A DNA stretch of 64,000 nt from an uncultured Candidatus Saccharibacteria bacterium (GTDB lineage Bacteria > Patescibacteriota > Minisyncoccia > UBA6257 > WO2-44-18). Shown here piece by piece: positions 3,752 to 61,085 of this stretch. The stretch lies in the NCBI GenBank assembly GCA_964373675.1, contig CAYJVO010000001.1:4327-68326 (forward strand), in the 5' to 3' direction. The notes under the pieces were generated by a model, which saw only the letters and a program-made list of their open reading frames with translations, searched no databases and was not told where the DNA came from. Within the stretch, counting starts at the first letter, position 1, and each line of letters begins with the position of its first letter. The translations under genes were made by a program, and so were the position numbers.

Positions 3752-4738
3752 TTATTTCACTACTTCGCGAAGTTTCTGAAGCACTGAGATTAGAGATTCC
3801 AAAACCGAGGCCAACTCTTTTTTAATAGCCGAGACAGACTGAGTGGAGGCGCATAAACTGCTGAAGTTTGAACCGCCGGATTCGTCATACCAATAGCGGT
3901 AGTGCAGCTTGCTTTCCGTATCAACGTTTTCCGGATCAATTGCTCCGTAAATATCGCCTTGCTTAAACAGTAAAATTCCTTGGTAGCAAGAACTAATTCT
4001 ATTGGTGGTTGGATTAACGATGAGAGCTGAAGGATCATAAAGCCGAACGGCTTCTTTATGCTTTGTAAAAGTATAATTAGCGGCATCAGTAAAATTGCAA
4101 ATATTTGAAATGCCTTGGTAGCCAATTATCTCAACATTCTCGCACGCGGAGAATTGCGAGCGAGTTTGATTGGCAATGAAAGCAGCCGGATCGCCCGGCG
4201 TAAGATAGCCGCGATGTTCGCGGGCATAACCGCCAGTATAAACAAATTTAGCCGGCCCGATGCTGAAAGTTCGGTTATTATCCACAATCCCGGTGCCGGT
4301 TTTGATTAACGGTCCTACAGGCGCGAGGACGGGTGGGGGTGGCGTTGGGGCTGTAGTCGCGGTCGGTTGTTCTTCTACAGGAGGCGTTAGTGTCGGTGTT
4401 GGAGCGGCTGGAACTTGGGCAAGCTCTGCTAATTTGGCACGGGTTTTTGGACCAACAATTCCTACTGGTTCAATGCCGTTTTTTGTCTGAAATCTTTTTA
4501 CTGCCGCTTCAGTTAGTTTACCAAAATAACCAGTTGCCAAACCTTCGGGATAAAGTTCTTTGTCTTGAGCTAAATACTGCTGAATGGCCTTTACATCATC
4601 TCCGCGCGTGCCCAAAAACAAAGCCCGATTTATCACCGGCGCGACTATAGAAGGAGTTGTAGTTTGAGCTAGCGCTGTAATGCCGATTGCCAGCGTTAAA
4701 ATCAGACCCAATAATCTTTTAACACCCATTGGTTTCAT
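3752..4738 (-). CDS. Secreted protein with peptidoglycan-binding (PG_binding_1-like) domain and Pro/Thr-rich linker
   Basis: Signal peptide MKPMGVKRLLGLILTLAIGITALA. The LFLGTRGDDVKAIQQYL...GYFGKLTEAAVKRFQTKNGIEPVGIVGPKT motif matches the PG-binding repeat. A PT-rich linker is followed by an unknown C-terminal domain. Confidence 0.7.
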   Translation of the reverse strand: MKPMGVKRLLGLILTLAIGITALAQTTTPSIVAPVINRALFLGTRGDDVKAIQQYLAQDKELYPEGLATGYFGKLTEAAVKRFQTKNGIEPVGIVGPKTRAKLAELAQVPAAPTPTLTPPVEEQPTATTAPTPPPPVLAPVGPLIKTGTGIVDNNRTFSIGPAKFVYTGGYAREHRGYLTPGDPAAFIANQTRSQFSACENVEIIGYQGISNICNFTDAANYTFTKHKEAVRLYDPSALIVNPTTNRISSCYQGILLFKQGDIYGAIDPENVDTESKLHYRYWYDESGGSNFSSLCASTQSVSAIKKELASVLESLISVLQKLREVVK

Positions 4739-4976: not shown

Positions 4977-5058
4977 TTTATTCTCCTTCGCCGAAAACCC
5001 CGGGCGGCCTACTCCGCCGAAGTAGCTTCAGCTACGAAGGCTGGATAAGGCCGTGGAG
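4977..5058 (+). repeat. Dispersed ~85-bp element, family A copy 1 (candidate structured RNA)
   Basis: Near-identical copies at 22721-22810 and 32015-32105, all on the + strand. Contains palindromic hairpins GTAGCTTCAGCTAC. Confidence 0.6.
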
Positions 5059-5068
5059 CTACATTTAT

Positions 5069-5147: not shown

Positions 5148-5906
5148 ATGCGTTTTCGCGTTTTATTTATTATAGGAACACTTGCTGTTCTTTTAGTCGT
5201 CGGTGTCGCTCAGGCGAACCATTCTTGGGGAGGGTATCACTGGGCGCGTACCGCCAACCCATTCACCTTGAAGCTTGGCGACAACGTTGGAGCGGTCTGG
5301 GACGGCCACCTTACTACCGCATCAGGCGATTGGAGCGTGTCTTCGGCGTTAGACACCACAATTATTGCCGGTCAATCCAAAGGGAATTGTCGGCCCACCA
5401 ACGGGCGGGTAGAGGTTTGCAACAGAACCTACGGTTTCAATGGCTGGCTTGGTTTGGCGCAGATCTGGGTTACCAGCGATCAGCATATCACCAACGGTGT
5501 GGTCAAACTCAACGACACTTATTTCAACACCCCGACTTATAACACTCCGGCCTGGCGAAATCTTGTAGTGTGTCAGGAAATCGGCCATACGATTGGCCTT
5601 GATCATCAAGACGAGAATTTCAGCAATCCACCACTCGGCACTTGCATGGATTACTCAAGCGATCCTACGCCCAACCAGCATCCTAATCAGCATGACTACG
5701 ACCAACTGGAAGCGATCTACGCTCACCTTGATTCAGTAACCACGCTTTCCCAATCAAACGTTTCTAATAGGCGTGATGCCAATCACGAAGATTCGGGAGA
5801 ATGGGGTAAGTCCAGGAAGCGTGACGCTCGCGGCCGAACATCCATCTACGAACAAGATCTCGGCAAAGGCGAAAAGGTGTTCACCTTTGTATTCTGGACA
5901 GAATAG
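5148..5906 (+). CDS. Secreted metzincin-like protein (putative zinc metalloprotease, non-canonical motif)
   Basis: Signal peptide MRFRVLFIIGTLAVLLVVGVAQA. The QEIGHTIGLDH stretch fits HExxHxxGxxH with Gln in place of the first His. A downstream Cys/Met segment (GTCMDYSSDP) resembles a Met-turn, snapalysin-like. Confidence 0.5.
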   Translation: MRFRVLFIIGTLAVLLVVGVAQANHSWGGYHWARTANPFTLKLGDNVGAVWDGHLTTASGDWSVSSALDTTIIAGQSKGNCRPTNGRVEVCNRTYGFNGWLGLAQIWVTSDQHITNGVVKLNDTYFNTPTYNTPAWRNLVVCQEIGHTIGLDHQDENFSNPPLGTCMDYSSDPTPNQHPNQHDYDQLEAIYAHLDSVTTLSQSNVSNRRDANHEDSGEWGKSRKRDARGRTSIYEQDLGKGEKVFTFVFWTE

Positions 5907-6115: not shown

Positions 6116-6595
6116 TCATAAACTAATCACTCCAGGCTCCACGGCATCTTTATCAATTATAAATTGCATCATAAATGGTTCTCCATCCTTATTAGTAATG
6201 GGTAGGTCGTTTGCCGAATTAAACACTTGATCGCCATCATCTCGATGAAGCATTGCAAAAAGTGTTTCGCCGTCTTGCGACATACGCGAGATAGGTATTG
6301 AGAAATTCTCGTTATCGCCGGCAGAAAGAAGGCGGCTTTTGCCGATTACAGCGCCTGGATTTCCGTTTTTTTCTTCGTGGATAACCACAAAACCGTCCGC
6401 CTCAAACGCGGCAAAACTAACCGCAATTTTTTCTCCAGGTATCTGGTCCGGAACATAAATCGCGTTCGCTCCCAAACGAAAACCACTCGTTGTTTCTTTG
6501 GTATTTTCAAAACCAATTTTATATCCAAAGTAATAACTGAATCCGATTCCAAGCGTAAAAACCGCGATTAACAAGAAAAGAACTTTTGTTTTCAT
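6116..6595 (-). CDS. Hypothetical membrane-anchored protein
   Basis: 159 aa with N-terminal TM helix MKTKVLFLLIAVFTLGIGFSYYFGY. No recognisable domain. Confidence 0.5.
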   Translation of the reverse strand: MKTKVLFLLIAVFTLGIGFSYYFGYKIGFENTKETTSGFRLGANAIYVPDQIPGEKIAVSFAAFEADGFVVIHEEKNGNPGAVIGKSRLLSAGDNENFSIPISRMSQDGETLFAMLHRDDGDQVFNSANDLPITNKDGEPFMMQFIIDKDAVEPGVISL

Positions 6596-7859: not shown

Positions 7860-9047
7860 GTGAGGATCGGATACGTTATAATTTTTACTTCATTAATTCT
7901 GATTTTGGCAGGCCTTTTTTTATTTTTAGGCAAACCAACCGTATTTAAGATTACGGCTGAGTTTCAAAATAGCATCGGTACCAATCTGGATATTGAATCT
8001 CAAAAACCGCTAGCCAATCCGCCAGCAATTATCAAAGCCATCTATGCCACTAATTGGTCGGCCGGCAGCCCCAAGAAGCTGAATTATCTTATTAACCTTA
8101 TCAAAGAAACGGAACTAAATGCCATAGTTATTGATGTTAAAGATTTTTCCGGCTATGTGGGCTACAACACGCATTTGGAACTACCACAAAAATACAAGGC
8201 CGTGGAACTTCGCATCCCTCAGCTTAATAAACTGGTAAAGCGTCTTCATGATGAAAATATTTATGTTATTGGCCGCATCTCGGTTTTTCAGGACCAGCGT
8301 TTGGCGCTGGCGCGGCCAGATCTCGCGCTGCACAGCAGTTCCACCGGCGCAGTTTGGAAAGACAATAAAGGTTTGATGTGGCTAGACACCGCCTCCAAAG
8401 AAGTTTGGGATTACAATATTGCTATTGCTAGAGAAATTTTGGATCGGGGGTTTGATGAAGTAAACTTTGACTATGTACGATTTGCCTCTGACGGCAATTT
8501 GAATGACATTAAACACCCATTTTGGGATGAGAAGACTTTAAAAACGCTGGTGGTCCGAAATTTATTTAAATATATGCGTGAACAGCTGCCGAGCGCTAAG
8601 CTTTCCGCCGACCTTTTTGGTTTGGTAACGGTAAACACTGACGGTTTAGGAATCGGTCAGCATTTGGAATACGCCCTGCCTTACTTTGATGCCATTGCCC
8701 CAATGGTCTATCCATCGCACTATTTTAAGGGATTTATTGGATACGAAAATCCAGCGGAGTACCCGTATCAAATCGTGAAATATTCCTTGGATACGGCGGC
8801 TGCCAGAATTAAAAATTATAAATTAAGAATTAAGAATGAGGTAGGGACAACTACGCCAATCAAAATTGCCAAGCTTCGGCCGTTCCTTCAGGATTTTGAT
8901 CTAGGCGCCGATTATAACGAACAAAAAATCCGCGCTCAAATCCAGGCAGTCTATGACACGGCCAGTTCTTCACCGGAACTCTTTGACGGCTGGATGCTGT
9001 GGAACGCATCAAATATGTACACGAACGATGCATTGTCGCCAGAATGA
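7860..9047 (+). CDS. Membrane-anchored putative glycoside-hydrolase-like TIM-barrel protein (GHL/DUF4015-like)
   Basis: GTG start, N-terminal TM, and AIVIDVKDFSGYVGY...FDEVNFDYVRF motifs resembling COG1306/GHL families. Family assignment is tentative. Confidence 0.5.
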   Translation: MRIGYVIIFTSLILILAGLFLFLGKPTVFKITAEFQNSIGTNLDIESQKPLANPPAIIKAIYATNWSAGSPKKLNYLINLIKETELNAIVIDVKDFSGYVGYNTHLELPQKYKAVELRIPQLNKLVKRLHDENIYVIGRISVFQDQRLALARPDLALHSSSTGAVWKDNKGLMWLDTASKEVWDYNIAIAREILDRGFDEVNFDYVRFASDGNLNDIKHPFWDEKTLKTLVVRNLFKYMREQLPSAKLSADLFGLVTVNTDGLGIGQHLEYALPYFDAIAPMVYPSHYFKGFIGYENPAEYPYQIVKYSLDTAAARIKNYKLRIKNEVGTTTPIKIAKLRPFLQDFDLGADYNEQKIRAQIQAVYDTASSSPELFDGWMLWNASNMYTNDALSPE

Positions 9048-9050
9048 ATA

Positions 9051-9144
9051 GACTACGAAAATAGGCTACGAAATACGAAAAAGTACGAAATTTATTAAGT
9101 TTTATGCTTTTCGTATATTCGTAAAAATTTCGTATTTCGTAGCC
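9051..9144. repeat. Family B palindromic 'TACGAAA' element, copy B1
   Basis: GGCTACGAAATACGAAA...TTTCGTATTTCGTAGCC terminal inverted repeats around an AT-rich core. Fills the spacer between the GH-like gene and scpA. Confidence 0.7.
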
Positions 9145-15022: not shown

Positions 15023-16195
15023 ATGAATAAAGAAACCCGAATTTTGTTAACCGGCGGCGGAACCGGCGGGCACATTTATCCGCTGTCGGCCGTCGCCAAA
15101 AAAATTCAGGAACAGACCCCGAATGCGGACATTGCTTATGCCGGCCAGCCAGGCGGTTACCGCGGCATTTTAGAACAGCACAATATAAAAATTTTAAGTG
15201 TGGTCTCCAGCAAGTGGCGCCGTTATTTTTCGCCTTTAAATGTCCTGGAGGTTTTCCGTTTTTTTATTGGCTTCTTGCAGGCGTTTTGGAAGATTTATTG
15301 GTTTATGCCGGACGCTCTTTTTTCCAAAGGCGGTCCCGGCGCCTTACCAATAATTCTTGTCTGCCGATTTTATCTGATACCAATAGTAATTCATGAGTCT
15401 GATGTCATTCCCGGTTTGACCAGCATAATTTCTGCCCGGTACGCTAAAAAAATTTTCCTTGCTTTTGAGGAGGCCGAAGGTTATTTCCAAAATAAAAATA
15501 CTGAGGTTGTGGGACAGCCGGTTAGAGATGAAATCGCCTCTGGCGGATTGCCACCATCGGAAACCAGAAAAATGCTTGGTTTTTCCGCCGATCTACCAAT
15601 GATTTTGGTTATAGGCGGTTCACAAGGATCAACGCGAATTAACGATTTTATTCTTTCTAATCTCAAACTTCTGCTGGAGAAATTTCAAATCTTGCATCAA
15701 ATCGGAGAAAATAATTATAAAGATTACAACCAAGAATATGAAGTGGAAAGCCGGCGATTGAGTCCGTTGCTAAAAAGCCGTTATCATTTTGCCGCTTATT
15801 TAAACAATAGTCATCCATTCACGATGGCCAGTGCTTTGTCAGCGGCAGACGCGGTAATTTCCCGCGGAGGAGCGAGCGCAATATTTGAAATTTCCGCTTT
15901 AGGTAAACCATCAATTCTGATTCCTCTGCCTGAATCCGCCCGCAATCATCAGGAAGCTAACGCTTATGCTTTCCAAAAAACTGGCGCCGCTATTGTAATT
16001 GAAGAAGAAAACCTGAAACCCAATCTCTTTGAAAGTATTTTGGAAAATCTTTTTTCCGCCTCCGGAGGCGGAAAAAATCTCCAGAAATTACAGATGATGT
16101 CCGAAGCGGCTAAAAGATTTTATAAACCCCAAGCAGCAGAAAAAATCGCCTCTTATATATTGAAATTGCTTAATGAAAATAAATATGGCCATTAA
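15023..16195 (+). CDS. murG: UDP-GlcNAc--MurNAc-pentapeptide-undecaprenol GlcNAc transferase
   Basis: ILLTGGGTGGHIYPLSAVA N-terminus and a GT-B fold C-terminal GGSQGS motif. Confidence 0.9.
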   Translation: MNKETRILLTGGGTGGHIYPLSAVAKKIQEQTPNADIAYAGQPGGYRGILEQHNIKILSVVSSKWRRYFSPLNVLEVFRFFIGFLQAFWKIYWFMPDALFSKGGPGALPIILVCRFYLIPIVIHESDVIPGLTSIISARYAKKIFLAFEEAEGYFQNKNTEVVGQPVRDEIASGGLPPSETRKMLGFSADLPMILVIGGSQGSTRINDFILSNLKLLLEKFQILHQIGENNYKDYNQEYEVESRRLSPLLKSRYHFAAYLNNSHPFTMASALSAADAVISRGGASAIFEISALGKPSILIPLPESARNHQEANAYAFQKTGAAIVIEEENLKPNLFESILENLFSASGGGKNLQKLQMMSEAAKRFYKPQAAEKIASYILKLLNENKYGH

Positions 16196-16206
16196 AATGA
16201 GCAGGT

Positions 16207-16332
16207 CTACAAAATACGAAATCTTACCAATATACGAAACCGATTTGGTATATTCGCCTGCCTGCCGGCCTTGCTCCGCCGAAGCGCTACGCGAAGGCGA
16301 TGCAGGCAGGTACTATTTTCGTATTTAGTAAC
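16207..16332. repeat. Family B element, long variant with GC-rich inner palindrome, copy B2
   Basis: Near-identical to 46728-46858. Outer arms CTAC.AAATACGAAA/TTTCGTATTT.GTAG and inner arms CCTGCCTGCC...GCAGGCAGG. Fills the murG-gltX spacer. Confidence 0.75.
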
Positions 16333-16338
16333 TTATAG

Positions 16339-17790
16339 ATGATTACAAAATTAAAAAAAATCCGAACCCGCATCGCGCCTTCGCCAACGGGTTATTTTCA
16401 TATTGGCACTGCCCGAACCGCGCTTTTTAACTGGCTTTTTACCAAACAGCAGGGCGGGAAATTTATTTTGCGCATTGAGGATACTGATTTAGAGCGATCC
16501 GATAAAAAATTTGAAAAGGATATTATGGAGAATCTTAAATGGCTTGGCCTGGATTGGGACGAAGGACCAGTCGCAGCTGCGACTGGTCAAAGATCAAAGA
16601 TCAAAGGTCAAATGTATGTAGGCGACTGCGGGCCGTATCGGCAAAGTGAACGATTAGAAACCTATAAAAAATATATAAACAGACTACTGGATCAAAAACT
16701 TGCTTATTATTGCTTTTGCACCCCGGAAGAACTGGAAGAACAGCGGCAAGCAATGTTGGTTCAGGGATTAGCCCCTAAATACAGCGGAAAATGCAGCGCC
16801 TTGAGTGCAATAATAACCAAAAAGAATCTAGCAGTTCAAAAATCGCACATTATTCGTTTTCGGGTGCCGCAAACAACCGTAACTTTTAAGGACATTATTC
16901 GCGGCCCCATCAGCTTTGATGCCTCATTGATTGGAGATATCGCTATCGCTAAAGATCCGGAAATTCCGCTTTATAATTTCGCCGTGGTGGTGGACGACTA
17001 TGAAATGGAAATTTCTCATGTGATTCGCGGCGAAGACCATGTTGCCAATACCCCAAAACAAATCTTACTTCAAAAAGCTTTAGAATTTCCCCAGCCGGAA
17101 TACGCCCATCTCCCTCTTATTTTGGACCCGGATCGGCATAAAATGTCCAAAAGATATTCCGCTGTTTCGGTAGCCGAATATCGCAACCAGGGATATTTGC
17201 CGGAAGCAATGATTAATTTTATGGCGCTGCTTGGCTGGCATCCCGGACCGGTAACACCAAAAGGTTTTGAAAGAGAAATTTTCAGCTTACAAGAATTAAT
17301 TCAAGAGTTTAATTTGGAGCGAGTGCAAAAAGCCGGCGCGGTTTTCAATATTGAAAAACTAAACTGGATTAACGCGCAGTATATTAAAAAACTTTCAGAT
17401 AAAGAGCTGGCGAAAATGCTTAATTTTAAAAACCTTAAAGTGATTGCTTTAGCGAAAGACAGAATGAAAAACCTTTCGGATTTTCACGAATTAGCTGACT
17501 GGGCAATAAAATTGCCGGATTATTCCGCAGACCTTTTAATCTGGAAGCAAACATCGAAAGAGGTGATAAAGGAAAATTTAAGGCGGGCGCTGGAAATTTT
17601 AGAATCCGGAGAAAGAAATGACTTAATGAAGCTGGCAGAAGAACGGGGCAGGGGTGAGGTATTGTGGCCGGTCCGCGCCGCTCTATCCGGCAAAGACGCG
17701 TCTCCGGGCCCGCTGGAAATGATTGAAGCTTTGGGTAAAAAAGAAGCAATCAAGCGGCTGAAAATCGCCATCAAAAAACTTGAATCATGA
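16339..17790 (+). CDS. gltX: Glutamyl-tRNA synthetase
   Basis: Class I HIGH-type SPTGYFHIGTART and a KMSKR motif. 483 aa. Confidence 0.9.
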   Translation: MITKLKKIRTRIAPSPTGYFHIGTARTALFNWLFTKQQGGKFILRIEDTDLERSDKKFEKDIMENLKWLGLDWDEGPVAAATGQRSKIKGQMYVGDCGPYRQSERLETYKKYINRLLDQKLAYYCFCTPEELEEQRQAMLVQGLAPKYSGKCSALSAIITKKNLAVQKSHIIRFRVPQTTVTFKDIIRGPISFDASLIGDIAIAKDPEIPLYNFAVVVDDYEMEISHVIRGEDHVANTPKQILLQKALEFPQPEYAHLPLILDPDRHKMSKRYSAVSVAEYRNQGYLPEAMINFMALLGWHPGPVTPKGFEREIFSLQELIQEFNLERVQKAGAVFNIEKLNWINAQYIKKLSDKELAKMLNFKNLKVIALAKDRMKNLSDFHELADWAIKLPDYSADLLIWKQTSKEVIKENLRRALEILESGERNDLMKLAEERGRGEVLWPVRAALSGKDASPGPLEMIEALGKKEAIKRLKIAIKKLES

Positions 17791-17807
17791 ATCAAGAATT
17801 ATGAATT

Positions 17808-22700: not shown

Positions 22701-22725
22701 TCCCGCCACGGCGGGATTATTTATT
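22699..22725 (+). terminator. Rho-independent terminator
   Basis: ATCCCGCC-ACG-GCGGGAT hairpin followed by ATTTATT. Confidence 0.6.
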
Positions 22726-22810
22726 CTCCTTCGCCGAAAACCCCGGACGGCCTACTCCGCCGAAGTAGCTTCAGTTACGAAGGCTGGATAAGGCCGTGGA
22801 GTTTCATTTG
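22721..22810 (+). repeat. Family A element, copy 2
   Basis: Differs from copy 1 by a few substitutions, including C to T giving GTAGCT/AGTTAC, which stays G:U-compatible. Confidence 0.6.
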
Positions 22811-26668: not shown

Positions 26669-26723
26669 AAGGTAAAAAGTCTATAAAGTCCCTAAAGTAA
26701 TTTATAAACTTTATAGAGGTGAG

Positions 26724-26812
26724 GGTATTCTATTTTTGCGATCGCTGGGATAAAATACCTAAATACTTAACTAACTAATAGGCTTTAAGGACTTGATGGA
26801 CTTTTCACTAAA
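26724..26812 (+). repeat. Family C ~90-110 bp element, copy C1
   Basis: GGTATTCTATTTTTGCGATCGCTGGGATAAAATACCTAAATACTTAACTAACTAAT...GGACTTGATGGACTTTTCACTA. An inverted copy lies at 40163-40249 and a partial copy at 61014-61070. Contains the 8-bp palindrome GCGATCGC. Confidence 0.7.
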
Positions 26813-28706
26813 ACTTATAGATAAATATAGATTTCCCGGCTCTTGCGTAAGGTTTATATGGTTCGGTGAGCCATTCGTATTCATCAGCCGGATTGCGCTG
26901 ACCGGCACCCAGTCTTCCTTTCGCCCCCTGAATCGTATTTATGGAAACCGCTAGCCATTCTATGCCGGCTTCTTCTTTGGGATTTCCCTTCGCAGAATTC
27001 CATAATTCCGCCGTTTCACCTAAATAATAATTTGGGTTGCTGCCGCCAAAATAGTCCACCGCAATCTTCTTAATGTCATTGTCCTGGCCATTGTCATTGT
27101 TTTGTTCAGCTACCCATGTCGCTAATCGCTTAAGATCTTGTCCCCAATCATAGTTGGAATCCACAACCCGCAAATAACCCTTGGAAGCGCCGCCGCCCAG
27201 AAAGTTAAAGTAAGAAAGAAAATTGGGGTAAACGATAATCGTTGATGCCAGAAACCAACCCAGTAAAATCGCCAAAACAAGGGCTTTAATTACCAAACCG
27301 GTAAATTCGCCAATCACCGCCATCAGCCGGACAATTTTGTTTTTATAACTCAAAACCTCTTCCAAGCTGAAAAATCGTTTTAAAACTCCGACGGCCAGGA
27401 TGTACGTAAACGGCATAGTCGGCAAAAGATGCCGGACACCGATGTTCAAAATACTGGTTATACTGGAGAGCCAGTAGATTACTACAAACAAAATCATCGC
27501 AAATTCGCTAAAATGAGTAGTCAGATACTCAAACACAATCAGCGATCTTTTAAATAGGGTGGCGAAGAGGCCGCGAAAAACTCCCGCTAGTCCTGTTATT
27601 ATGCCAAAAATAATGATTAAAAGACTCGGTAGGGGTTCTTTCAGCAAAAAAACAACCGGAAAATAATACCACCATCCTTCGTTGGAAACCTCGTCAAGAA
27701 AATAAGCAGTATTGCCGCCAGCCGCCCGCTGGGAAACCATTAAAAGGCCGAGCAAATATTCGCCGATTGGTCGTAAAACATGGTTACTGCTCATCCAGGC
27801 GACGGAATCGGCTAAAAACCGCGGCGTGAAAGTTCTTAGCAAGTTTTCAGCGTCACCAACTTGTTTTTCAATTGGGTAATTCCAAGTTAAAATCCCATAA
27901 ACTAAATAAACGGCGGCGAAACCTATCAAAAAAATCATTGCCAAAGAACGAAAATAGCGGTAAAAACGGATGGCGAAGCGCCGCATACGGCCTCGCTGAA
28001 GGTCCGTCATCTGCCAATCCCGAAAAACGCTCACTGCATAAAAAACCGTCATTAAAATAATAAAATATGGCCCAAGCAAAAAATTGGAAAATTTGAAAAG
28101 CTGGGCGATTCCAAATGCTAAGCCGGCAAAAATCAGATGCCGGCGAATGGGTGAAGATAAAAATTTTAAGAAAAAATAAACTGCCAAAAATACTCCCAAA
28201 GCGGCACCGATATCAGTAGTAACATAATGACCGTGAGCCAGTACGGTAGGAGAGAAAGCAAATAAAAAAACCGGCAGCAGCGCCCACCAGCGGCCGATCA
28301 ATTCTTTGGCAAATAAATAAATCAATATGGTTAAAATCAGTGTCAGTAAAATTGGCCCGAGACGGGACGAAAAAATAATCTTGTCTGCGTTATTGCCGCT
28401 TTCGTAAAGAAATTTAGTTCCGAGCGTCCATTGTTCATTAATGCCGGTTTGCCATTCTGCCACATCTCGCGAAAAATTCAGGTTCTGAAAAAGCAGGGGC
28501 AATCCTGCAAGAATTTTAACTAAAGGCGGGTGTTCTGGATTCAACCGGTAGTCCAAATAACGCACGTAACCGTAGCCCGCTGGTATATGGGCGAGTTCGT
28601 CCATAATCGCTGAATCGCCTCGGCTAGCACCTAGCATCCATAGACCGCTTACTATGACCATAACGATGACCAATGACCAACGAATAAAAGTGGAAAGGCG
28701 ATGCAT
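26808..28706 (-). CDS. GT-C fold ArnT/PMT-like (GT39/GT83) membrane glycosyltransferase
   Basis: 632 aa polytopic protein. First loop DELAHIPAGYGYVRYLDYRLNPEHPPLVKIL carries the DE...PPL signature of PMT/ArnT enzymes. Confidence 0.75.
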   Translation of the reverse strand: MHRLSTFIRWSLVIVMVIVSGLWMLGASRGDSAIMDELAHIPAGYGYVRYLDYRLNPEHPPLVKILAGLPLLFQNLNFSRDVAEWQTGINEQWTLGTKFLYESGNNADKIIFSSRLGPILLTLILTILIYLFAKELIGRWWALLPVFLFAFSPTVLAHGHYVTTDIGAALGVFLAVYFFLKFLSSPIRRHLIFAGLAFGIAQLFKFSNFLLGPYFIILMTVFYAVSVFRDWQMTDLQRGRMRRFAIRFYRYFRSLAMIFLIGFAAVYLVYGILTWNYPIEKQVGDAENLLRTFTPRFLADSVAWMSSNHVLRPIGEYLLGLLMVSQRAAGGNTAYFLDEVSNEGWWYYFPVVFLLKEPLPSLLIIIFGIITGLAGVFRGLFATLFKRSLIVFEYLTTHFSEFAMILFVVIYWLSSITSILNIGVRHLLPTMPFTYILAVGVLKRFFSLEEVLSYKNKIVRLMAVIGEFTGLVIKALVLAILLGWFLASTIIVYPNFLSYFNFLGGGASKGYLRVVDSNYDWGQDLKRLATWVAEQNNDNGQDNDIKKIAVDYFGGSNPNYYLGETAELWNSAKGNPKEEAGIEWLAVSINTIQGAKGRLGAGQRNPADEYEWLTEPYKPYARAGKSIFIYKF

Positions 28707-28994: not shown

Positions 28995-29100
28995 TCAAAC
29001 TCACTCTTAAAATACCTGTGGTAGTGTAACAATTTACCAGTGAATTTGCAAATCATAAAACTCGCTTGTCATCGTTATAGTCATTTGTCATAGTCAATTT

Positions 29101-32001: not shown

Positions 32002-32014
32002 CATTGGGCTTTTT

Positions 32015-32105
32015 TATTCTCCTTCGCCGAAAACCCCGGGCGGCCTACTCCGCCGTAGTAGCCTACGGCTACGAAGGCTGGATAAGACCGTGGAGCTTCA
32101 TTTCC
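32015..32105 (+). repeat. Family A element, copy 3
   Basis: Carries the CCGTAG/CTACGG and GTAGCC/GGCTAC variants, which are compensatory relative to copies 1 and 2. Confidence 0.6.
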
Positions 32106-32223: not shown

Positions 32224-32275
32224 TTTGACGCGTCAAAACACTGCTATCATGCGTGATAGCAGTGTTTCTTTTACG
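32224..32275 (+). repeat. Family D composite: TTGACGCGTCAA palindrome plus CACTGCTATCA hairpin (D2), terminator-like
   Basis: TTTGACGCGTCAAAACACTGCTATCA-TGCGT-GATAGCAGTGTT then TCTTTTAC. Near-exact inverted copy at 36231-36279. Confidence 0.65.
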
Positions 32276-32464
32276 TGTGGAAGAGATACAAATTGAAAGA
32301 TACTGGCATTAACTCTTCTACGATTATTGTTTTCCCCCAAAAGCCAAGCGTTAACGGCTTTACTCAAATTGACTAAGCGCCGTACAAATTAGGCGCAATT
32401 TGGTTTCTTTTATTAAAGACATCCGTTCTCTGGTAGTGTCAAATTCGCGGTTTTTTATTTACTT

Positions 32465-32496
32465 TTGTCATCGTCATTGTTATAGTCATGGTCATG
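32465..32496 (+). repeat. Family E 'TGTCAT(C/A)GT..ATAGTCAT' motif abutting a start codon
   Basis: TTGTCATCGTCATTGTTATAGTCATGGTCATG, with the ychF ATG inside it. Related copies at 29066-29098 (before the GTG at 29101) and 46145-46174 (before rplR, opposite orientation). Confidence 0.4.
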
Positions 32497-36230: not shown

Positions 36231-36279
36231 CACTGCTATCATACATACTAGCAGTGTTTTGACGCGTCAAAACACTGCT
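36231..36279. repeat. Family D composite (D3), inverted relative to D2
   Basis: CACTGCTATCA-TACATAC-TAGCAGTG hairpin plus the perfect 30-bp palindrome AGCAGTGTTTTGACGCGTCAAAACACTGCT. The palindrome encodes the last 4 codons and stop of the downstream minus-strand gene. Confidence 0.65.
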
Positions 36280-40155: not shown

Positions 40156-40162
40156 GAAGTTT

Positions 40163-40249
40163 TAGTGAAAAGTCCATCAAGTCCTTAAAGTCCATTAGTT
40201 AGTTAAATATTTAGGTATTTTATCCCAGCGATCGCAAAAATAGAATACC
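40163..40249 (-). repeat. Family C element, copy C2 (inverted orientation)
   Basis: Reverse complement of C1 over about 87 bp. Abuts the nuclease start codon on one side and the murC stop on the other. Confidence 0.7.
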
Positions 40250-40256
40250 TCCACAA

Positions 40257-45787: not shown

Positions 45788-46144
45788 TTAAAATTTTAAT
45801 CCGGCTTCTCTTGCGCTTTCAGCGATTGCTTTTATTCTACCGTGGAACTTATAAAAACCGCGGCTAAAAACTACTGACTTGACGCCTAGCCGCTTAGCTT
45901 TCTCAGCCACTAATTCGCCCAAAAATTTAGCCTGCCCGGTTTTTGTTTTCGCCCCCTTTTTCAATTCTTTGGTAGAAGCCGAAGCCAAGGTATGTCCTTT
46001 ACTATCGTCTATTAATTGGGCGTAGGTATAGCGGTTGCTTCGAAAAACCGAAAGTCGCGGCCGATCAGCGGTGCCAAAAATCTTAGCCCGACTCCGGCGC
46101 TTTCTCAACTCTCTATTAAAATTTCTTTTAGTAGTCGTGGCCAT
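45788..46144 (-). CDS. rplR: 50S ribosomal protein L18
   Basis: [20 protein letters not shown] motif. Confidence 0.9.
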
Positions 46145-46169
46145 AGTTATTTGTCATAGTCATTTGCCA

Positions 46170-46721
46170 TTATGCCGCTGTCCCAGCTCCCGCGACTTTT
46201 TTGCCTTCCTTGCGGCGGATAACTTCGCCTTTATATCTAATACCCTTGCCTTTGTACGGTTCCGGCTTTTTGATTTTTCTAATCTTTGCCGCCGCTAAAC
46301 CAACGAGGTTTTTATCAATACCGGAGACAGTAATCGTACCCTTCTCAACTGCTATTTTAATGCCGGCTGGAGGCGTAAATTTGGCTGGGTGAGTAAAACC
46401 TACATTTAAAACCAGGGAATTTCCTTCCATGGTGGCGCGAAAACCCACTCCCTCAATTTCCAAAGATTTACTGAACCCGCCGGCAACGCCCTGAATGGCG
46501 TTTTTCAATAAAGCGGCTGCCGTGCCCCAATTTGCCAATGCCTGCTTATGGCTTGCTGAAGGTTTTAATAATGCTTCTTTATCTCTCAGCTCCGCGAAAA
46601 TAAAAGGCGGCAATTTCAATTCCAACGCACCTTGCTTACCTTTAACCTGCAACGTTCCAGCCGCTTCTTTTACTTCCACGCCCTCTGGTATTACAATTGG
46701 TTTTTTAGCTAGTTTACTCAT
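46170..46721 (-). CDS. rplF: 50S ribosomal protein L6
   Basis: 183 aa, two alpha/beta repeats, GKGIRYKGEVIRRKEGK at the C-terminus. Confidence 0.9.
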   Translation of the reverse strand: MSKLAKKPIVIPEGVEVKEAAGTLQVKGKQGALELKLPPFIFAELRDKEALLKPSASHKQALANWGTAAALLKNAIQGVAGGFSKSLEIEGVGFRATMEGNSLVLNVGFTHPAKFTPPAGIKIAVEKGTITVSGIDKNLVGLAAAKIRKIKKPEPYKGKGIRYKGEVIRRKEGKKVAGAGTAA

Positions 46722-46727
46722 TGTAAA

Positions 46728-46858
46728 TGACTACGAAATACGAAATCTTACCAATATACGAAACCGATTTGGTATATTCGCTTGCCTGCCGGCCTTGCTC
46801 CGCCGAAGCGCTACGCGAAGGCGATGCAGGCAGGTACTATTTTCGTATTTGGTAGCTA
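46728..46858. repeat. Family B element, long variant, copy B3 (between rplF and rpsH)
   Basis: About 95% identical to 16207-16332. Fills the 137-bp rplF-rpsH spacer from start codon to stop codon. Confidence 0.75.
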
Positions 46859-47239
46859 CTACCATATTTCAAATAGTATTACTCCCCCGACCTTGGCTTT
46901 GCGCGCATCTTTAAAAGACATGATGCCTTGGGGTGTGGAAATCACTCCTAATCCATAACCCTGTCTTACCTTTTTTAAATCGCGGTAGCCCGCATATATT
47001 CGGCGCGACGGTTTGCTCACAAATTTAATTTCTTCAATTATGCCCCCGCCGTCTTTGTATTTTAATTTAATTTCAATAATTCTCTTGGGCATCCTCCCTT
47101 TCTTTTCTGCCGATTCTATAAACTTATTTTCGGCCAGAATTTGAGCAATAGCTAAATCCATACCAGAATAAGCCGTTTTTACGGTTTCTTTTTTCGCCTT
47201 TTGGGCGTTTTTGATTTTAATTAAGAGATCTGTGTACAT
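46859..47239 (-). CDS. rpsH: 30S ribosomal protein S8
   Basis: MYTDLLIKIKNAQKAKKETV N-terminus. Confidence 0.9.
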   Translation of the reverse strand: MYTDLLIKIKNAQKAKKETVKTAYSGMDLAIAQILAENKFIESAEKKGRMPKRIIEIKLKYKDGGGIIEEIKFVSKPSRRIYAGYRDLKKVRQGYGLGVISTPQGIMSFKDARKAKVGGVILFEIW

Positions 47240-48013: not shown

Positions 48014-48319
48014 TTAAAACACGCTTTTACACTTTTTGCAATACCGTACCTTTTGTTCGCCTTCGGCGCGATAACCGACGCGAACTGCTTCTTTGCAATT
48101 AGCACAAACCGGCATCGCCTTTGATTCTTTTAGTGGCCGAATGTTGTTAACTATTTCCCCCTTCCCCCCTTGTTTTTTTGGACGCTGATGTTTTTTATAA
48201 ACATTAAAGCCTTCCACCGTAACAGTTGCTTTGCTGTGATCAACTCTTAAAACTCTGCCCGTCTTCCCCCGGTCTTTGCCAGAAATTATTTTAACCGTAT
48301 CGCCTTTCTTTATCCTCAT
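48014..48319 (-). CDS. rplX: 50S ribosomal protein L24 with C-terminal C4 zinc-ribbon
   Basis: KOW motif GDTVKIISGKDRGKTGRVL. The C-terminus is PVCANCKEAVRVGYRAEGEQKVRYCKKCKSVF (C-x2-C...C-x2-C). Confidence 0.85.
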   Translation of the reverse strand: MRIKKGDTVKIISGKDRGKTGRVLRVDHSKATVTVEGFNVYKKHQRPKKQGGKGEIVNNIRPLKESKAMPVCANCKEAVRVGYRAEGEQKVRYCKKCKSVF

Positions 48320-50528: not shown

Positions 50529-50604
50529 GGCTACGAAATACGAAATTTTACTAATATACGAAATTGGTTTTGTATATTCGTACTATTTTCGTATTTAGTG
50601 GCTG
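50529..50604. repeat. Family B element, short variant, copy B4 (rpsC-rplV spacer)
   Basis: GGCTACGAAATACGAAATTTTACTAATATACGAAATTGGTTTTGTATATTCGTACTATTTTCGTATTTAGTGGCTG. Near-identical to 52366-52438. Confidence 0.75.
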
Positions 50605-51109: not shown

Positions 51110-51454
51110 CTATTTTTTTACCCCCTCAGCTGTCGCCTGAACCGCCTTGGCTTTTTCTGTCTCCGATTGCGCTTGCGCCGCCTCCAGTTCACGCTGCATC
51201 TTGCCACCATGTCTGACGAATTTTCTGGTCGGCGCAAATTCTCCAAGCCGATGGCCGACCATTTCTTCTTTAATTGAAACTTCCACGAAATTCTTGCCAT
51301 TATGGACTCCAAAAGTAAATCCCACCATTTCGGGAGCAATCTCCGAACCGCGAGACCAGGTTTTGATAACCGTCTTATCGCCCGGCTTTAAATTGGCTAT
51401 CTTCTTTAATAGCTTCGGATCAACATATGGGCCTTTCTTGCTTGAACGAGTCAT
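51110..51454 (-). CDS. rpsS: 30S ribosomal protein S19 with C-terminal extension
   Basis: [11 protein letters not shown]...[13 protein letters not shown] core plus ~25 extra residues. Confidence 0.9.
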
Positions 51455-51526
51455 TTTGTGTCATGTGTCAGGTGTCAGGTGTCATGTACCGTTTTCTTGA
51501 TACTTGACACCTGATACCTGGCACGT
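51455..51526 (-). promoter_or_regulatory. Large hairpin built from heptamer repeats (GTGTCAK x4 opposite TGACACC/TGATACC) in the rplB-rpsS spacer
   Basis: GTGTCATGTGTCAGGTGTCAGGTGTCATGTACC...TGATACTTGACACCTGATACCTGGCAC. Arms are complementary over ~16-20 bp, allowing G:U pairs. Confidence 0.6.
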
Positions 51527-52365: not shown

Positions 52366-52438
52366 AACTACGATACGAAATTTTACTAATATACGAAATT
52401 GGTTTTGTATATTCGTACTATTTTCGTATTTGGTAGCC
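52366..52438. repeat. Family B element, short variant, copy B5 (rplB-rplW spacer)
   Basis: Near-identical to B4. Fills the spacer from the rplW stop to the rplB start. Confidence 0.75.
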
Positions 52439-53844: not shown

Positions 53845-54171
53845 CTAAACCATCTTGATTTCAATATCTACGCCGGCGGGTAAATTAAGTTTAGATAAAG
53901 ATTCTATAATTGCCTGGTTTGGATTAAGAATGTCAATTAGTCTTTTATGAACCCGCAGCTCAAACTGCTCCCGAGAGTCTTTATGAACGAAAGTTGAACG
54001 GTTAACGGTATACTTTTTAATCTCGGTGGGCAGCGGAATCGGACCAATAACCTCCGCATCCTGACGCTTAGCGGCTTCTATAATCTGCTTGCAGGAATTA
54101 TCAATTAATTTATGGTCATAGGCTTTAATCCGAAGCCGTAATTTTTCTTTTTCAACTTCCTTCTTTACCAT
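53845..54171 (-). CDS. rpsJ: 30S ribosomal protein S10
   Basis: [15 protein letters not shown]...[20 protein letters not shown] motifs. Confidence 0.9.
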
Positions 54172-54174
54172 TGC

Positions 54175-54253
54175 GATCCGCTACTAAATACGAAATTTTT
54201 ACGAATATACTAAATGTTTTTCGTACTTTCGTAAATTTTCGTATTTAGTAGCC
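54175..54253. repeat. Family B element, short variant, copy B6, directly abutting the rpsJ start codon
   Basis: CTACTAAATACGAAATTTTTACGAATATACTAAATGTTTTTCGTACTTTCGTAAATTTTCGTATTTAGTAGCC. The same element with the same junction sequence (GCGATCCG-CAT) precedes rpsG at 58218-58295. Confidence 0.75.
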
Positions 54254-54289
54254 AATGAACTTATTGTTTGATCCGTATATTGGAGCAGT

Positions 54290-57717: not shown

Positions 57718-57746
57718 GAATTCGTACTCATTTCGTATTTCGTAGC
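57718..57746. repeat. Family B half-element (single arm) in the rpsG-fusA spacer
   Basis: TTCGTACTCATTTCGTATTTCGTAGC. Right-arm sequence only. Confidence 0.5.
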
Positions 57747-58217: not shown

Positions 58218-58295
58218 GATCCGCTACTAAATACGAAATTTTTACGAATATACTAAGTGTTTTTCGTACTTTCGTAAATTTTCGTATTTCGTAGC
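58218..58295. repeat. Family B element, short variant, copy B7 (rpsL-rpsG spacer)
   Basis: Differs from B6 at 2-3 positions. Confidence 0.75.
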
Positions 58296-60991: not shown

Positions 60992-61013
60992 TAATGGAGG
61001 CGATGGAAGCAAA

Positions 61014-61070
61014 GGTATTCTATTTTTGTGATCGCTAGGATAAAATACCTAAATATTTAACTAACTAATA
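61014..61070 (+). repeat. Family C element, partial copy C3, immediately 3' of tRNA-Ser on the opposite strand
   Basis: GGTATTCTATTTTTGTGATCGCTAGGATAAAATACCTAAATATTTAACTAACTAATA. Only the first half of the family C consensus is present. Confidence 0.65.
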
Positions 61071-61085
61071 GTCACGCTAAGGAAG

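Follow-up and report, generated by a model that had tools for sequence, protein, structure and literature searches.

The 126-nt element at positions 16207-16332 of a 64,000-nt stretch of genome from an uncultured Candidatus Saccharibacteria bacterium (contig CAYJVO010000001.1; the whole stretch is referred to below as the window) is probably a composite of two nested, non-autonomous repeats, similar to repetitive extragenic palindromic (REP) sequences and to transposable elements of the miniature inverted-repeat kind (MITEs), and as such a piece of selfish mobile DNA. Its outer part is an AT-rich palindrome, termed here the B element, and its inner part is a GC-rich hairpin; these belong to two different repeat families, and each of them exists independently of the other. 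The copies vary in a way that preserves their hairpins, they are dispersed without linkage to particular genes, and they occur in frame within proteins. The element is absent from the orthologous spacer of the nearest relatives examined. Selfish mobile DNA, rather than a gene-specific regulatory RNA, is the most likely identity of the element, and its GC-rich part is possibly a mini-element of cross-phylum distribution that has not been described before.

The long, 126-nt form occurs twice in the window. Copy 1 (16207-16332, + strand) occupies the spacer between murG (15023-16195, +; Pfam Glyco_transf_28) and gltX (16339-17790, +), and its right end lies 6 nt 5' of the gltX ATG. Copy 2 (46731-46856, +), which is the sole long partner found by the repeat search of the window (family D3), separates rpsH (46859-47239, -) from rplF (46170-46721, -), with its left end 9 nt from the rplF start codon (on the - strand) and its right end 2 nt from the rpsH stop codon. 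The two copies are identical at 122 of 126 positions (with mismatches at 16211, 16258, 16327 and 16331). Their flanks are unrelated over 40 nt on each side and the similarity ends abruptly, hence the 126-nt unit is sharp-ended. As both copies are on the + strand, they are in opposite orientation relative to the transcription of their operons. An earlier, sequence-only reading of the window had quoted the sequence of the first copy with its coordinates and reported near-identity over about 125 bp between the murG-gltX and rplF-rpsH spacers, and on these points we agree with it entirely. It had also considered the GC core compositionally foreign to an AT-rich genome. The core is indeed a separate entity, absent from the short B copies and found without B arms in other phyla, but the genome, at 43% GC, is not strongly AT-rich (42.9% for the window, 43.3% for coding and 38.0% for intergenic sequence). 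Even so, the core exceeds its surroundings by about 30 points; it has 72% GC, and the arms have 23-34%.

It could be objected that the second copy is an artefact of assembly or binning, i.e. a chimeric join at a repeat, given that short-read assemblers break or mis-join at repeats and that contigs from the Logan collection do break at this one. We attach practically no weight to this objection. The gene order around copy 2 is that of the canonical spc operon, and three Logan contigs of run ERR3478686 (L168, L169 and L001), in which murG, rpsH and rplF are identical to those of the window, run from these unique genes into the element with the copy-specific bases and end inside it, where the copies become identical. 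Breaks of the three contigs inside both copies provide independent support for two real, repeated copies; these short contigs and the 64-kb window together make up the same-strain material.

The internal organization of the long form becomes clear from its alignment to the short B copies and from folds. In copy 1, the left B arm (16207-16256, +; 32% GC) is made up of an inner AT hairpin (AATATAC...GTATATT) and of CTACAAAATACGAAA, the terminal inverted repeat. It is followed by the GC hairpin (16257-16310, +; 54 nt, 72% GC, RNA fold of -32 kcal/mol), whose outer stem CCTGCCTGC/GCAGGCAGG surrounds a conserved 33-nt module, CCTTGCTCCGCCGAAGCGCTACGCGAAGGCGAT (16269-16301, +), with the architecture CGCC / GAA / apical stem-loop / GAA / GGCG, and then by the right B arm TACTATTTTCGTATTTAGTAAC (16311-16332, +; 23% GC). 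Copy 2 is built in the same way (left arm 46731-46780, GC hairpin 46781-46834 with the module at 46793-46825, right arm 46835-46856, all +), with one C-to-T change in the outer stem that leaves a G-U/G-T pair. Short B copies without the GC core are located upstream of scpA (9065-9143) and in the spacers rplV-rpsC (50530-50602, 73 nt), rplW-rplB (52368-52437), tuf-rpsJ (54180-54252, in reverse orientation with respect to the others) and rpsL-rpsG (58223-58295), and a half copy in the rpsG-fusA spacer (57720-57746) retains the right arm only. The short form is an AT-rich palindrome of 70-79 nt (typically about 73 nt) with 16-nt inverted termini, and GCTACGAAATACGAAA and TTTCGTATTTCGTAGC delimit all seven complete copies, so that both the length and the terminal inverted repeats are those of a MITE, an AT-rich non-coding element of 70-300 bp whose inverted repeats measure about 15-30 bp. 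Over a stretch of 109 nt, the copy at 58223-58295 and the one at 54161-54269 share 92% identity, the downstream start-codon context included.

The long form equals a short B element plus one clean block of 54 nt between ...GTATATTCG and TACTATTTTCG..., and the five short copies lack exactly these 54 nt at the same junction; the copy in the rplV-rpsC spacer, with its uninterrupted GTATATTCG/TACTATTTTCG junction, serves as the reference empty site. In the fold, the insertion point is where the inner AT hairpin meets the outer stem's 3' strand. The arms of the two long copies carry substitutions private to them (ATCTTACCAATATACGAAACCGATTTGG vs ATTTTACTAATATACGAAATTGGTTTTG in all short B copies), and these, together with 97% identity in unrelated spacers, indicate a recent copying event that involved the B+GC composite as a whole, as the sequence-only reading had supposed when it spoke of a recent duplication or transposition. 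The opposite polarity, with the long form as ancestor and with short copies derived from it through exact loss of the GC hairpin, e.g. by palindrome slippage, would agree with the known proneness of palindromic inserts to deletion and with the clean 54-nt difference between the two forms. It would, however, require five independent, identical and precise deletions. Moreover, there is more diversity among the short copies than between the two long ones, which, with their private substitutions, make up a young subfamily; the window data point to long forms nested within the diversity of short ones, and in many unrelated genomes the GC module is found free of B arms, just as B exists without the module. 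We regard this scenario as very unlikely.

Folding agrees with the earlier description of nested palindromes: on both strands of both copies the predicted RNA structures are nested hairpins (-47.3, -48.1, -49.2 and -48.6 kcal/mol), with z-scores from -4.7 to -6.1 and none of 200 shuffles as stable, and with DNA parameters the topology is unchanged (about -28 kcal/mol, z about -5). A short B copy folds at -19 to -29 kcal/mol. Within the 54-nt GC-rich hairpin of the core, a 9-bp outer stem encloses a large structured interior; taken alone, the 33-nt module has only stems of 4 bp and 3 bp. Across 13 variants of the apical stem, the first pairs covary (CG vs UA 7:6, GC vs AU 7:5), 95.6% of cells are paired, none of 500 shuffles matches this value, and sliding the partners against each other abolishes the pairing. 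The deeper apical pairs vary yet stay complementary (GCG/CGC, GCGC/GCGC, GCGG/CCGC, GUAGC/GCUAC, GUAGCC/GGCUAC), around a GAA/GAA internal loop that is unpaired and conserved. In the metagenome copies described below the flanking arms also vary, but remain self-complementary (CCCCCC/GGGGGG, CCCCCGCTG/CAGCGGGGG, GTCGC/GCGAC, ATCACCCGA/TCGGGTGAT), and the longest complementary run has a mean of 6.9 for a copy's own arms, against 5.3 for arms of different copies and 4.7 for shuffled arms. This per-copy complementarity test was used instead of RNAalifold, which for 104 copies recovers the invariant inner pairs only, because the outer arms are out of register.

In the window itself, the architecture of the module is shared with the GC-rich repeats of family D2 (about 90 nt), located at 4977-5066 (+; 90 nt, CTCCGCC-GAA-(stem-loop)-GAA-GGC, apical stem GUAGC/GCUAC), at 22720-22809 (+; immediately behind a terminator-like hairpin that follows a NUDIX gene) and at 32013-32102 (+; with the compensated apical stem GUAGCC/GGCUAC). 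They have CTCCGCC-GAAG...CGAAGGC in common with the core of the long B elements. The statement that the window contains only two copies is therefore correct for the long form, but three further members of the GC-core superfamily, which the sequence-only reading had not linked to it, have to be added. A fuzzy search of the window returned exactly five sites (two cores and three D2 repeats), and 20 shuffles gave none. All five members are on the + strand (two-sided p about 0.06 for n=5), while gene orientation switches along the window; an interpretation in terms of the replication strand was abandoned, as GC skew merely tracks gene orientation and is uninformative. As a separate observation, two of the D2 copies are situated directly behind terminator-like hairpins with T-runs.

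Beyond the window, an exact 26-mer of the core (CTCCGCCGAAGCGCTACGCGAAGGCG) is present in four contigs of metagenome-assembled genomes (MAGs) titled Saccharibacteria, Bacteroidetes, Planctomycetota and Phycisphaerales (in a search of species-representative genomes), and the Bacteroidetes-titled contig has a second copy, one base longer. A scan of metagenomes with TCCGCCGAAGCG[N]CTACGCGAAGGC identified at least 120 loci, and 126 copies, from metagenome and genome-contig loci together, were analyzed among the matches listed. In these copies the block CCTTGCTCCGCCGAAGCG(G)CTACGCGAAGGCG is near-invariant, including CCTTGC and the trailing G, which the pattern had left free. The CCTGCC.../...GGCAGG arms seen in the window recur in three of the contigs (L003, L096 and L087), and the last of these is a Parcubacteria contig (its RNase Y is 85% identical to named Parcubacteria proteins). 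Many contigs with the module and a GC content of about 40% look like Bacteroidota, for which a fused SecDF equivalog and a SusC-like N-terminus are suggestive. Also among the matches listed, 89 of the 99 copies with usable flanks are in distinct contexts, and the 126 copies divide into 77 intergenic ones, 35 located less than 250 nt from a contig end and 14 that overlap an open reading frame (ORF) call. Relative to the neighboring ORFs, 60 intergenic copies are in the same sense as co-directional neighbors (17), in the sense opposite to such neighbors (15), between divergent genes (16) or between convergent genes (12). This lack of preferred orientation or context and of a recurrent neighbor is the behavior of dispersed DNA rather than of a gene-linked RNA. 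The metagenome copies often form part of larger palindromic composites, and other GC modules are likewise nested in hairpin loops (L135, L095, L045/L113). In IMG/VR, the general motif gave 37 matches, mostly chance ones in GC-rich coding DNA, of which about seven look genuine; the D2-type core was found in three contigs (L170, L171 and L026, with 59-67% GC), and the B element had no match.

It is tempting to go further and to regard the GC core as an undescribed superfamily of very small mobile hairpins (CTCCGCC-GAA-(variable mini-hairpin)-GAA-GGCG, minimally about 33 nt), spread across phyla, homing to the loops and junctions of palindromes, carried in frame in proteins and mobilized in trans, possibly by an atypical subclass of Y1/HUH enzymes. 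We put this forward as possible rather than probable. The phyla involved would apparently include Patescibacteria, Planctomycetota and the source of the Bacteroidota-like contigs, in addition to the D2-type copies in contigs with about 60% GC.

Occurrence of the module inside genes was observed for the 33-nt form (CCTYGCTCCGCCGAAGCGCTACGCGAAGGCGAG), which is inserted in frame in four unrelated long ORFs: a MobA-like nucleotidyltransferase (L004:7190-7240), an FG-GAP repeat protein (L005:5950-6000) and two others (L104:11180-11230 and L132:245-295). It is always read from the reverse strand and in a single frame, giving SPSRSASAE(R/Q), and the preceding residue is D or G, i.e. (D/G)SPSRSASAE(R/Q). 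In the MobA-like protein, the module coincides with an 11-residue gap in the comparison with the structures 2we9 and 2waw in the PDB. In-frame copies in otherwise intact genes are a property of the 33-nt module, not of the copies in the window. A related case is ribosomal protein L24 of the relative L166, in whose gene tandem CCTGCCTACCGGACAGGCAGG hairpins (L166:8752-8792) encode an in-frame insert of 26 residues (...SLPTGQAGLPTGQA...); the insert is absent from L24 of the window (48014-48319) and of another relative, L163. Since the arms of these tandem hairpins are those of the core's outer stem, this case suggests that the 54-nt core is itself layered, with the 33-nt module nested within a CCTGCC/GGCAGG hairpin.

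The organism belongs to the Patescibacteria/Parcubacteria group. The comparison with relatives is limited by their distance: for ribosomal protein L6, the closest of the named homologues is only 68-69% identical, and these homologues are labelled Patescibacteria-group, Parcubacteria-group, Harrisonbacteria and Wolfebacteria. The rpsH-rplF spacer, which measures 137 nt in the window, is 7 nt long in L163 and 24 nt in L166, and neither contains B elements or the module. The relatives have other AT-rich "word" palindromes (GCGAAT/ATTCGC, TAATTAG) in spacers of ribosomal-protein genes, e.g. tuf-rpsJ and rplD-rplW (L166:2300-2410 and 4025-4150; L163:2985-3085), and these reach the start codon, in parallel to the TACGAAA-based B elements of the window.

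This placement raises the question of whether the element acts as a cis-acting RNA in polycistronic transcripts, be it a REP-like stabilizer, a site for RNase III or RNase Y, a partial attenuator or an element that modulates how a downstream gene without a Shine-Dalgarno sequence is translated, with the GC insert strengthening the weaker B hairpin. Transcription of either strand of the long form would yield a very stable predicted structure (-47 to -49 kcal/mol, vs the much weaker fold of a short B copy), the distance from a B copy to the next start codon downstream is 6-13 nt in every case (6-9 nt for the long copies), most B copies are inside ribosomal-protein operons, the genes of the window mostly lack a Shine-Dalgarno sequence, and the different palindromes of the relatives occupy like spacers such as tuf-rpsJ. 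Nonetheless, four B copies are in sense and three in antisense with respect to the mRNA. Both long copies lie inside operons and so each would be transcribed, in opposite senses. The mixed orientations argue against a role in RNA as the reason for the existence of the element, and the indifference of the 60 intergenic metagenome copies to orientation and context, together with the presence of the module inside ORFs, points the same way. Rfam 15 recognized only two tRNAs in the window at the gathering score and, even at E <= 5, nothing at either long copy, at D2 or at B, the T-box expected 5' of some gltX genes and the ribosomal-protein leaders included, and consensus scans found neither terminator-like nor promoter-like sites in either copy. 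As a primary explanation, a cis-acting RNA appears to us rather unlikely, and yet an element of mobile origin could have a secondary function at the RNA level. An intrinsic terminator was rejected as well: the scan is negative, copy 2 lies antisense in the middle of the spc operon, and the metagenome copies are not enriched between convergent genes.

Alternatively, the B elements could be regulatory sites at the DNA level, with TACGAAA/TTTCGTA as operators for ribosomal-protein and cell-envelope genes or as part of an unusual promoter, and with the long variant only incidentally altered by the GC hairpin. The word ATACGAAA occurs 24 times vs 3.65 expected, with 20 of the 24 occurrences within eight B loci, in the str, S10 and spc operons the copies cluster 5' of start codons, and the relatives have word-rich palindromes at comparable positions. 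This explanation is nevertheless hard to reconcile with the presence of copies 5' of scpA and between murG and gltX, where no shared regulation is obvious, or with the sharp boundaries and inverted termini, which are traits of a repeat unit. No sigma-70-like promoter was called in the elements, and their -10-like hexamers are 13-14 nt from the ATG, as opposed to 5-7 nt for the typical TATAAT of the window. We consider it improbable.

If the element is a nested composite of mobile repeats, as we favor, its history may be outlined as follows. A genome-specific, AT-rich B element (about 73 nt, with 16-nt termini) would have filled spacers between tightly packed genes. A 54-nt GC hairpin, with the 33-nt module (CGCC-GAA and GAA-GGCG around a short variable stem-loop, with CCTTGCT in front) at the tip of the CCTGCCTGC/GCAGGCAGG stem, would then have been inserted without target duplication into a single-stranded junction of the B fold (TTCG^TACTA), and the resulting composite would have been copied once more into a second spacer, as the common arm variants suggest. 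The module family appears to spread within genomes and apparently between phyla, to prefer the loops and junctions of existing palindromes, and to be tolerated in ORFs in one frame. The module probably moves as a hairpin of single-stranded DNA on which an enzyme encoded elsewhere acts in trans, in analogy to REP sequences and their REP-associated tyrosine transposases (RAYTs) or to IS200/IS605. Such a mechanism is consistent with the lack of target duplication, with the same-strand bias (weak, at n=5) and with the atypical REPs of particular Y1 subclasses (PMC6006769). With each long copy, a fold of about -47 kcal/mol would come to lie within a few nucleotides 5' of a start codon without a Shine-Dalgarno sequence, and any effect on mRNA stability, processing or translation is probably a by-product rather than the reason for the existence of the element.

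How the element relates to known repeats deserves attention. MITEs with long variants due to internal insertions include ERIC/IRU, Correia/NEMIS and RUP, and B likewise has a longer variant that results from insertion at one fixed site. The B element resembles bacterial MITEs also in being an AT-rich palindrome of 70-80 nt with inverted termini of about 16 nt, situated in transcribed spacers beside coding sequences, but it differs from them in the lack of a detectable target-site duplication and of any related transposase or full-length insertion sequence (IS) in our searches. MITE clusters are 97% genus-specific (PMC11602168). Since MITE families are normally confined to a genus, the cross-phylum core is the unusual feature here: genus specificity fits B, not the GC module.

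The core, in turn, shares with REP/REPIN sequences a short GC-rich imperfect palindrome, a mostly intergenic location, conserved unpaired bases and the absence of target duplication. REPs are defined as GC-rich stem-loops of 20-40 bp with a stem of 6-13 bp and a terminal GTAG (GYRG-type) or CGTC (PMC3733652). In REP/REPIN systems the repeats, often paired as inverted doublets, flank the gene of the Y1 transposase (RAYT/TnpA-REP) that mobilizes them. They are occasionally inserted in ORFs (PMC3733652) and are known within longer AT-rich palindromes, as in GTAG-15 of Anabaena variabilis, GTAG-23 of Thermomicrobium roseum and CGTC-1 of Halothiobacillus (Di Nocera et al. 2013, PMC3733652); the core, too, sits in a larger palindromic host sequence and sometimes in ORFs. 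In contrast to REPs, the tip of the module is conserved and the base of the hairpin is variable, which is the reverse of typical REP families. Further differences are the same core in several phyla, the absence of inverted doublets (none in the window), the lack of a RAYT nearby and the lack of a terminal GTAG/CGTC. Atypical REPs without GT[AG]G have been described for Y1 subclasses of Bacteroidetes and Planctomycetes, but the REP tables in the supplement of that work do not contain the core, the sole partial match being the GCC-GAA-GGC apex of a Pseudomonas stutzeri REP (PMC6006769).

Three other groups of repeats offer analogies. Rickettsia palindromic elements (RPEs) are about 100-150 nt long. 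They are selfish palindromes located both between genes and in frame in functional protein genes (PMC3733652), and the module resembles them in adding SPSRSASAE(R/Q) to four ORFs; it differs in its length of 33 nt, its GC-richness and its distribution across phyla, RPEs having been reported in Rickettsia (PMC3733652). The module was found in none of the literature we could search, in which its core sequence, taken on both strands and as DNA and RNA, had no match. The small dispersed repeats (SDRs) of Nostoc/Anabaena are reportedly hairpin-forming, non-coding mobile repeats of less than 40 nt, often nested in each other or in other palindromes, as is the module here. They are said to be cyanobacterial, 21-27 nt long and different from the module in sequence; to our knowledge, their mobilizing mechanism is not known and cross-phylum identity has not been reported for them. 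The GC clusters and double-hairpin elements of fungal mitochondria are also GC palindromes in AT-rich spacers, which insert into one another and occasionally into genes; being organellar and unrelated in sequence, they serve as an analogy only.

Several other candidates were considered and rejected. Derivation from tRNA, rRNA, signal recognition particle RNA or RNase P RNA lacks any Rfam signal; a sequencing adaptor or an artefact of multiple displacement amplification is at odds with the diverse contexts, the different projects and the variable arms; and the defining motifs of an integron attC site, a CRISPR repeat and a group II intron domain V are absent on inspection. BLAST searches of D2 (which resembles the E. 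coli REP motif GGATAAGGC) against all complete E. coli genomes and of the long element against the PLSDB plasmids returned no match.

A number of observations weigh against the interpretation of the element as mobile DNA. No mobilizing enzyme was identified among the 20 window ORFs searched with Pfam or in the neighborhoods of about 120 loci; specifically, a cognate Y1 (RAYT/TnpA-REP) gene was found neither in these 20 ORFs nor among the recurrent neighbors of these loci. All-vs-all clustering of 580 neighbor ORFs revealed no recurrent family (the largest cluster covers eight loci and resembles a transporter family). Pfam searches of 150 small neighbor ORFs gave at most three members per family and no transposase among the recurrent families, although a single occurrence could escape such an analysis, and ORFs bracketed by two modules (L003) or adjoining one (L160, L002, L096, L087) showed no transposase by Pfam. 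For the B termini, no full-length IS or transposase partner was detected among the window ORFs tested or in IMG/VR. The sequence-only reading had pointed to inverted termini, target-site duplications and flanking direct repeats as signs of transposition. Only the inverted termini, GCTACGAAATACGAAA and TTTCGTATTTCGTAGC, were found: there is no target-site duplication or other direct repeat around the seven B copies, and no flanking base is doubled at the 54-nt insertion. The terminal GTAG/CGTC tag is absent as well, the termini of the core being CCTGCC.../...GGCAGG, and none is present on the metagenome copies; on the reverse strand the base next to the stem gives GTAC, which is part of B, and CTAC/GTAG occurs only in the apical loop. 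Without target duplication and without the tag, the element is neither a classical MITE nor a classical REP. No clean pair of filled and empty sites was obtained among close strains, as the region upstream of rny (L087/L175 vs L172-L176) is too diverged to align and the nearest relatives have about 68% identity in L6. The exact-match search pattern itself accounts for some of the invariance that the core appears to have, and a selected function, e.g. a recognition site for protein or RNA, could instead explain why the unpaired GAA/GAA loop and CCTTGCT are so strictly conserved. Finally, the taxonomic labels of the MAGs rest on binned short contigs of about 8-14 kb, and the strand pattern in the window rests on five sites.

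Patescibacteria and other bacteria with small, reduced genomes are usually regarded as poor in selfish DNA. Here, repeats fill the spacers of the most conserved operons (str, S10 and spc) and fragment short-read assemblies at these loci, which matters for the quality of MAGs and for ribosomal-protein phylogenies. If mobile, the 33-nt hairpin would be among the smallest mobile units described, and it would need trans-acting machinery that either crosses phyla or is universally present. The sequence handle CTCCGCCGAAG...CGAAGGCG can be used in the search for this machinery. In-frame copies of the module may account for odd Ser/Ala-rich inserts in predicted metagenome proteins, and the same handle could help to explain low-complexity inserts (SPSRSASAE, LPTGQAG) and to mask them in alignments.

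The window contains further repeats. Between convergent genes (5148-5906, +, and 6116-6595, -), the segment 5964-6115 consists of at least four adjacent GC-rich, perfect or near-perfect hairpins, e.g. GCTTCATCCCGCCGTCGGCGGGATGAAGC and GGCTCCGCCGAGTCTGACTCGGCGGAGCC, in an arrangement like that of bacterial interspersed mosaic elements; weak, sub-threshold Rfam matches in this segment (Thr_leader, PreQ1-III) are probably due to chance. A third repeat family of about 60-100 nt, characterized by GCGATCGC (...AGGTATTCTATTTTTGCGATCGCTGGGATAAAATACCTAAATA...), is present in both orientations at 26713-26816, 40157-40254 and 61003-61071, and the arms 26719-26816 and 40157-40254 are 95% complementary. 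The segments 32224-32264 and 36231-36271 form an inverted pair, 90% complementary, with two palindromes (TTTGACGCGTCAAA and CACTGCTATCA...TGATAGCAGTG). Arrays of similar palindromes, CCACTATCATTGATGATAGTGG, occur in the relative L166 at 16700-17800.

In front of most start codons of the window (e.g. at 7860, 12369, 15023, 19075, 26808-28706 on the - strand, and 33535), Shine-Dalgarno sequences are almost absent, and many genes have TATAAT 5-7 nt before the ATG or GTG; this spacing suggests that leaderless or near-leaderless transcripts may be widespread in this organism. Short word repeats are located directly 5' of start codons at 51455-51490 (gene 51110-51454, -), 29068-29099, 46134-46165 and 32460-32487, and they consist of TGACACC/TGACACA heptamers (...acatgacacctgacacctgacacatgacacaaaATG) or of GTCAT/ATAGTCAT words (...gtcatcgttatagtcatttgtcatagtcaattt).

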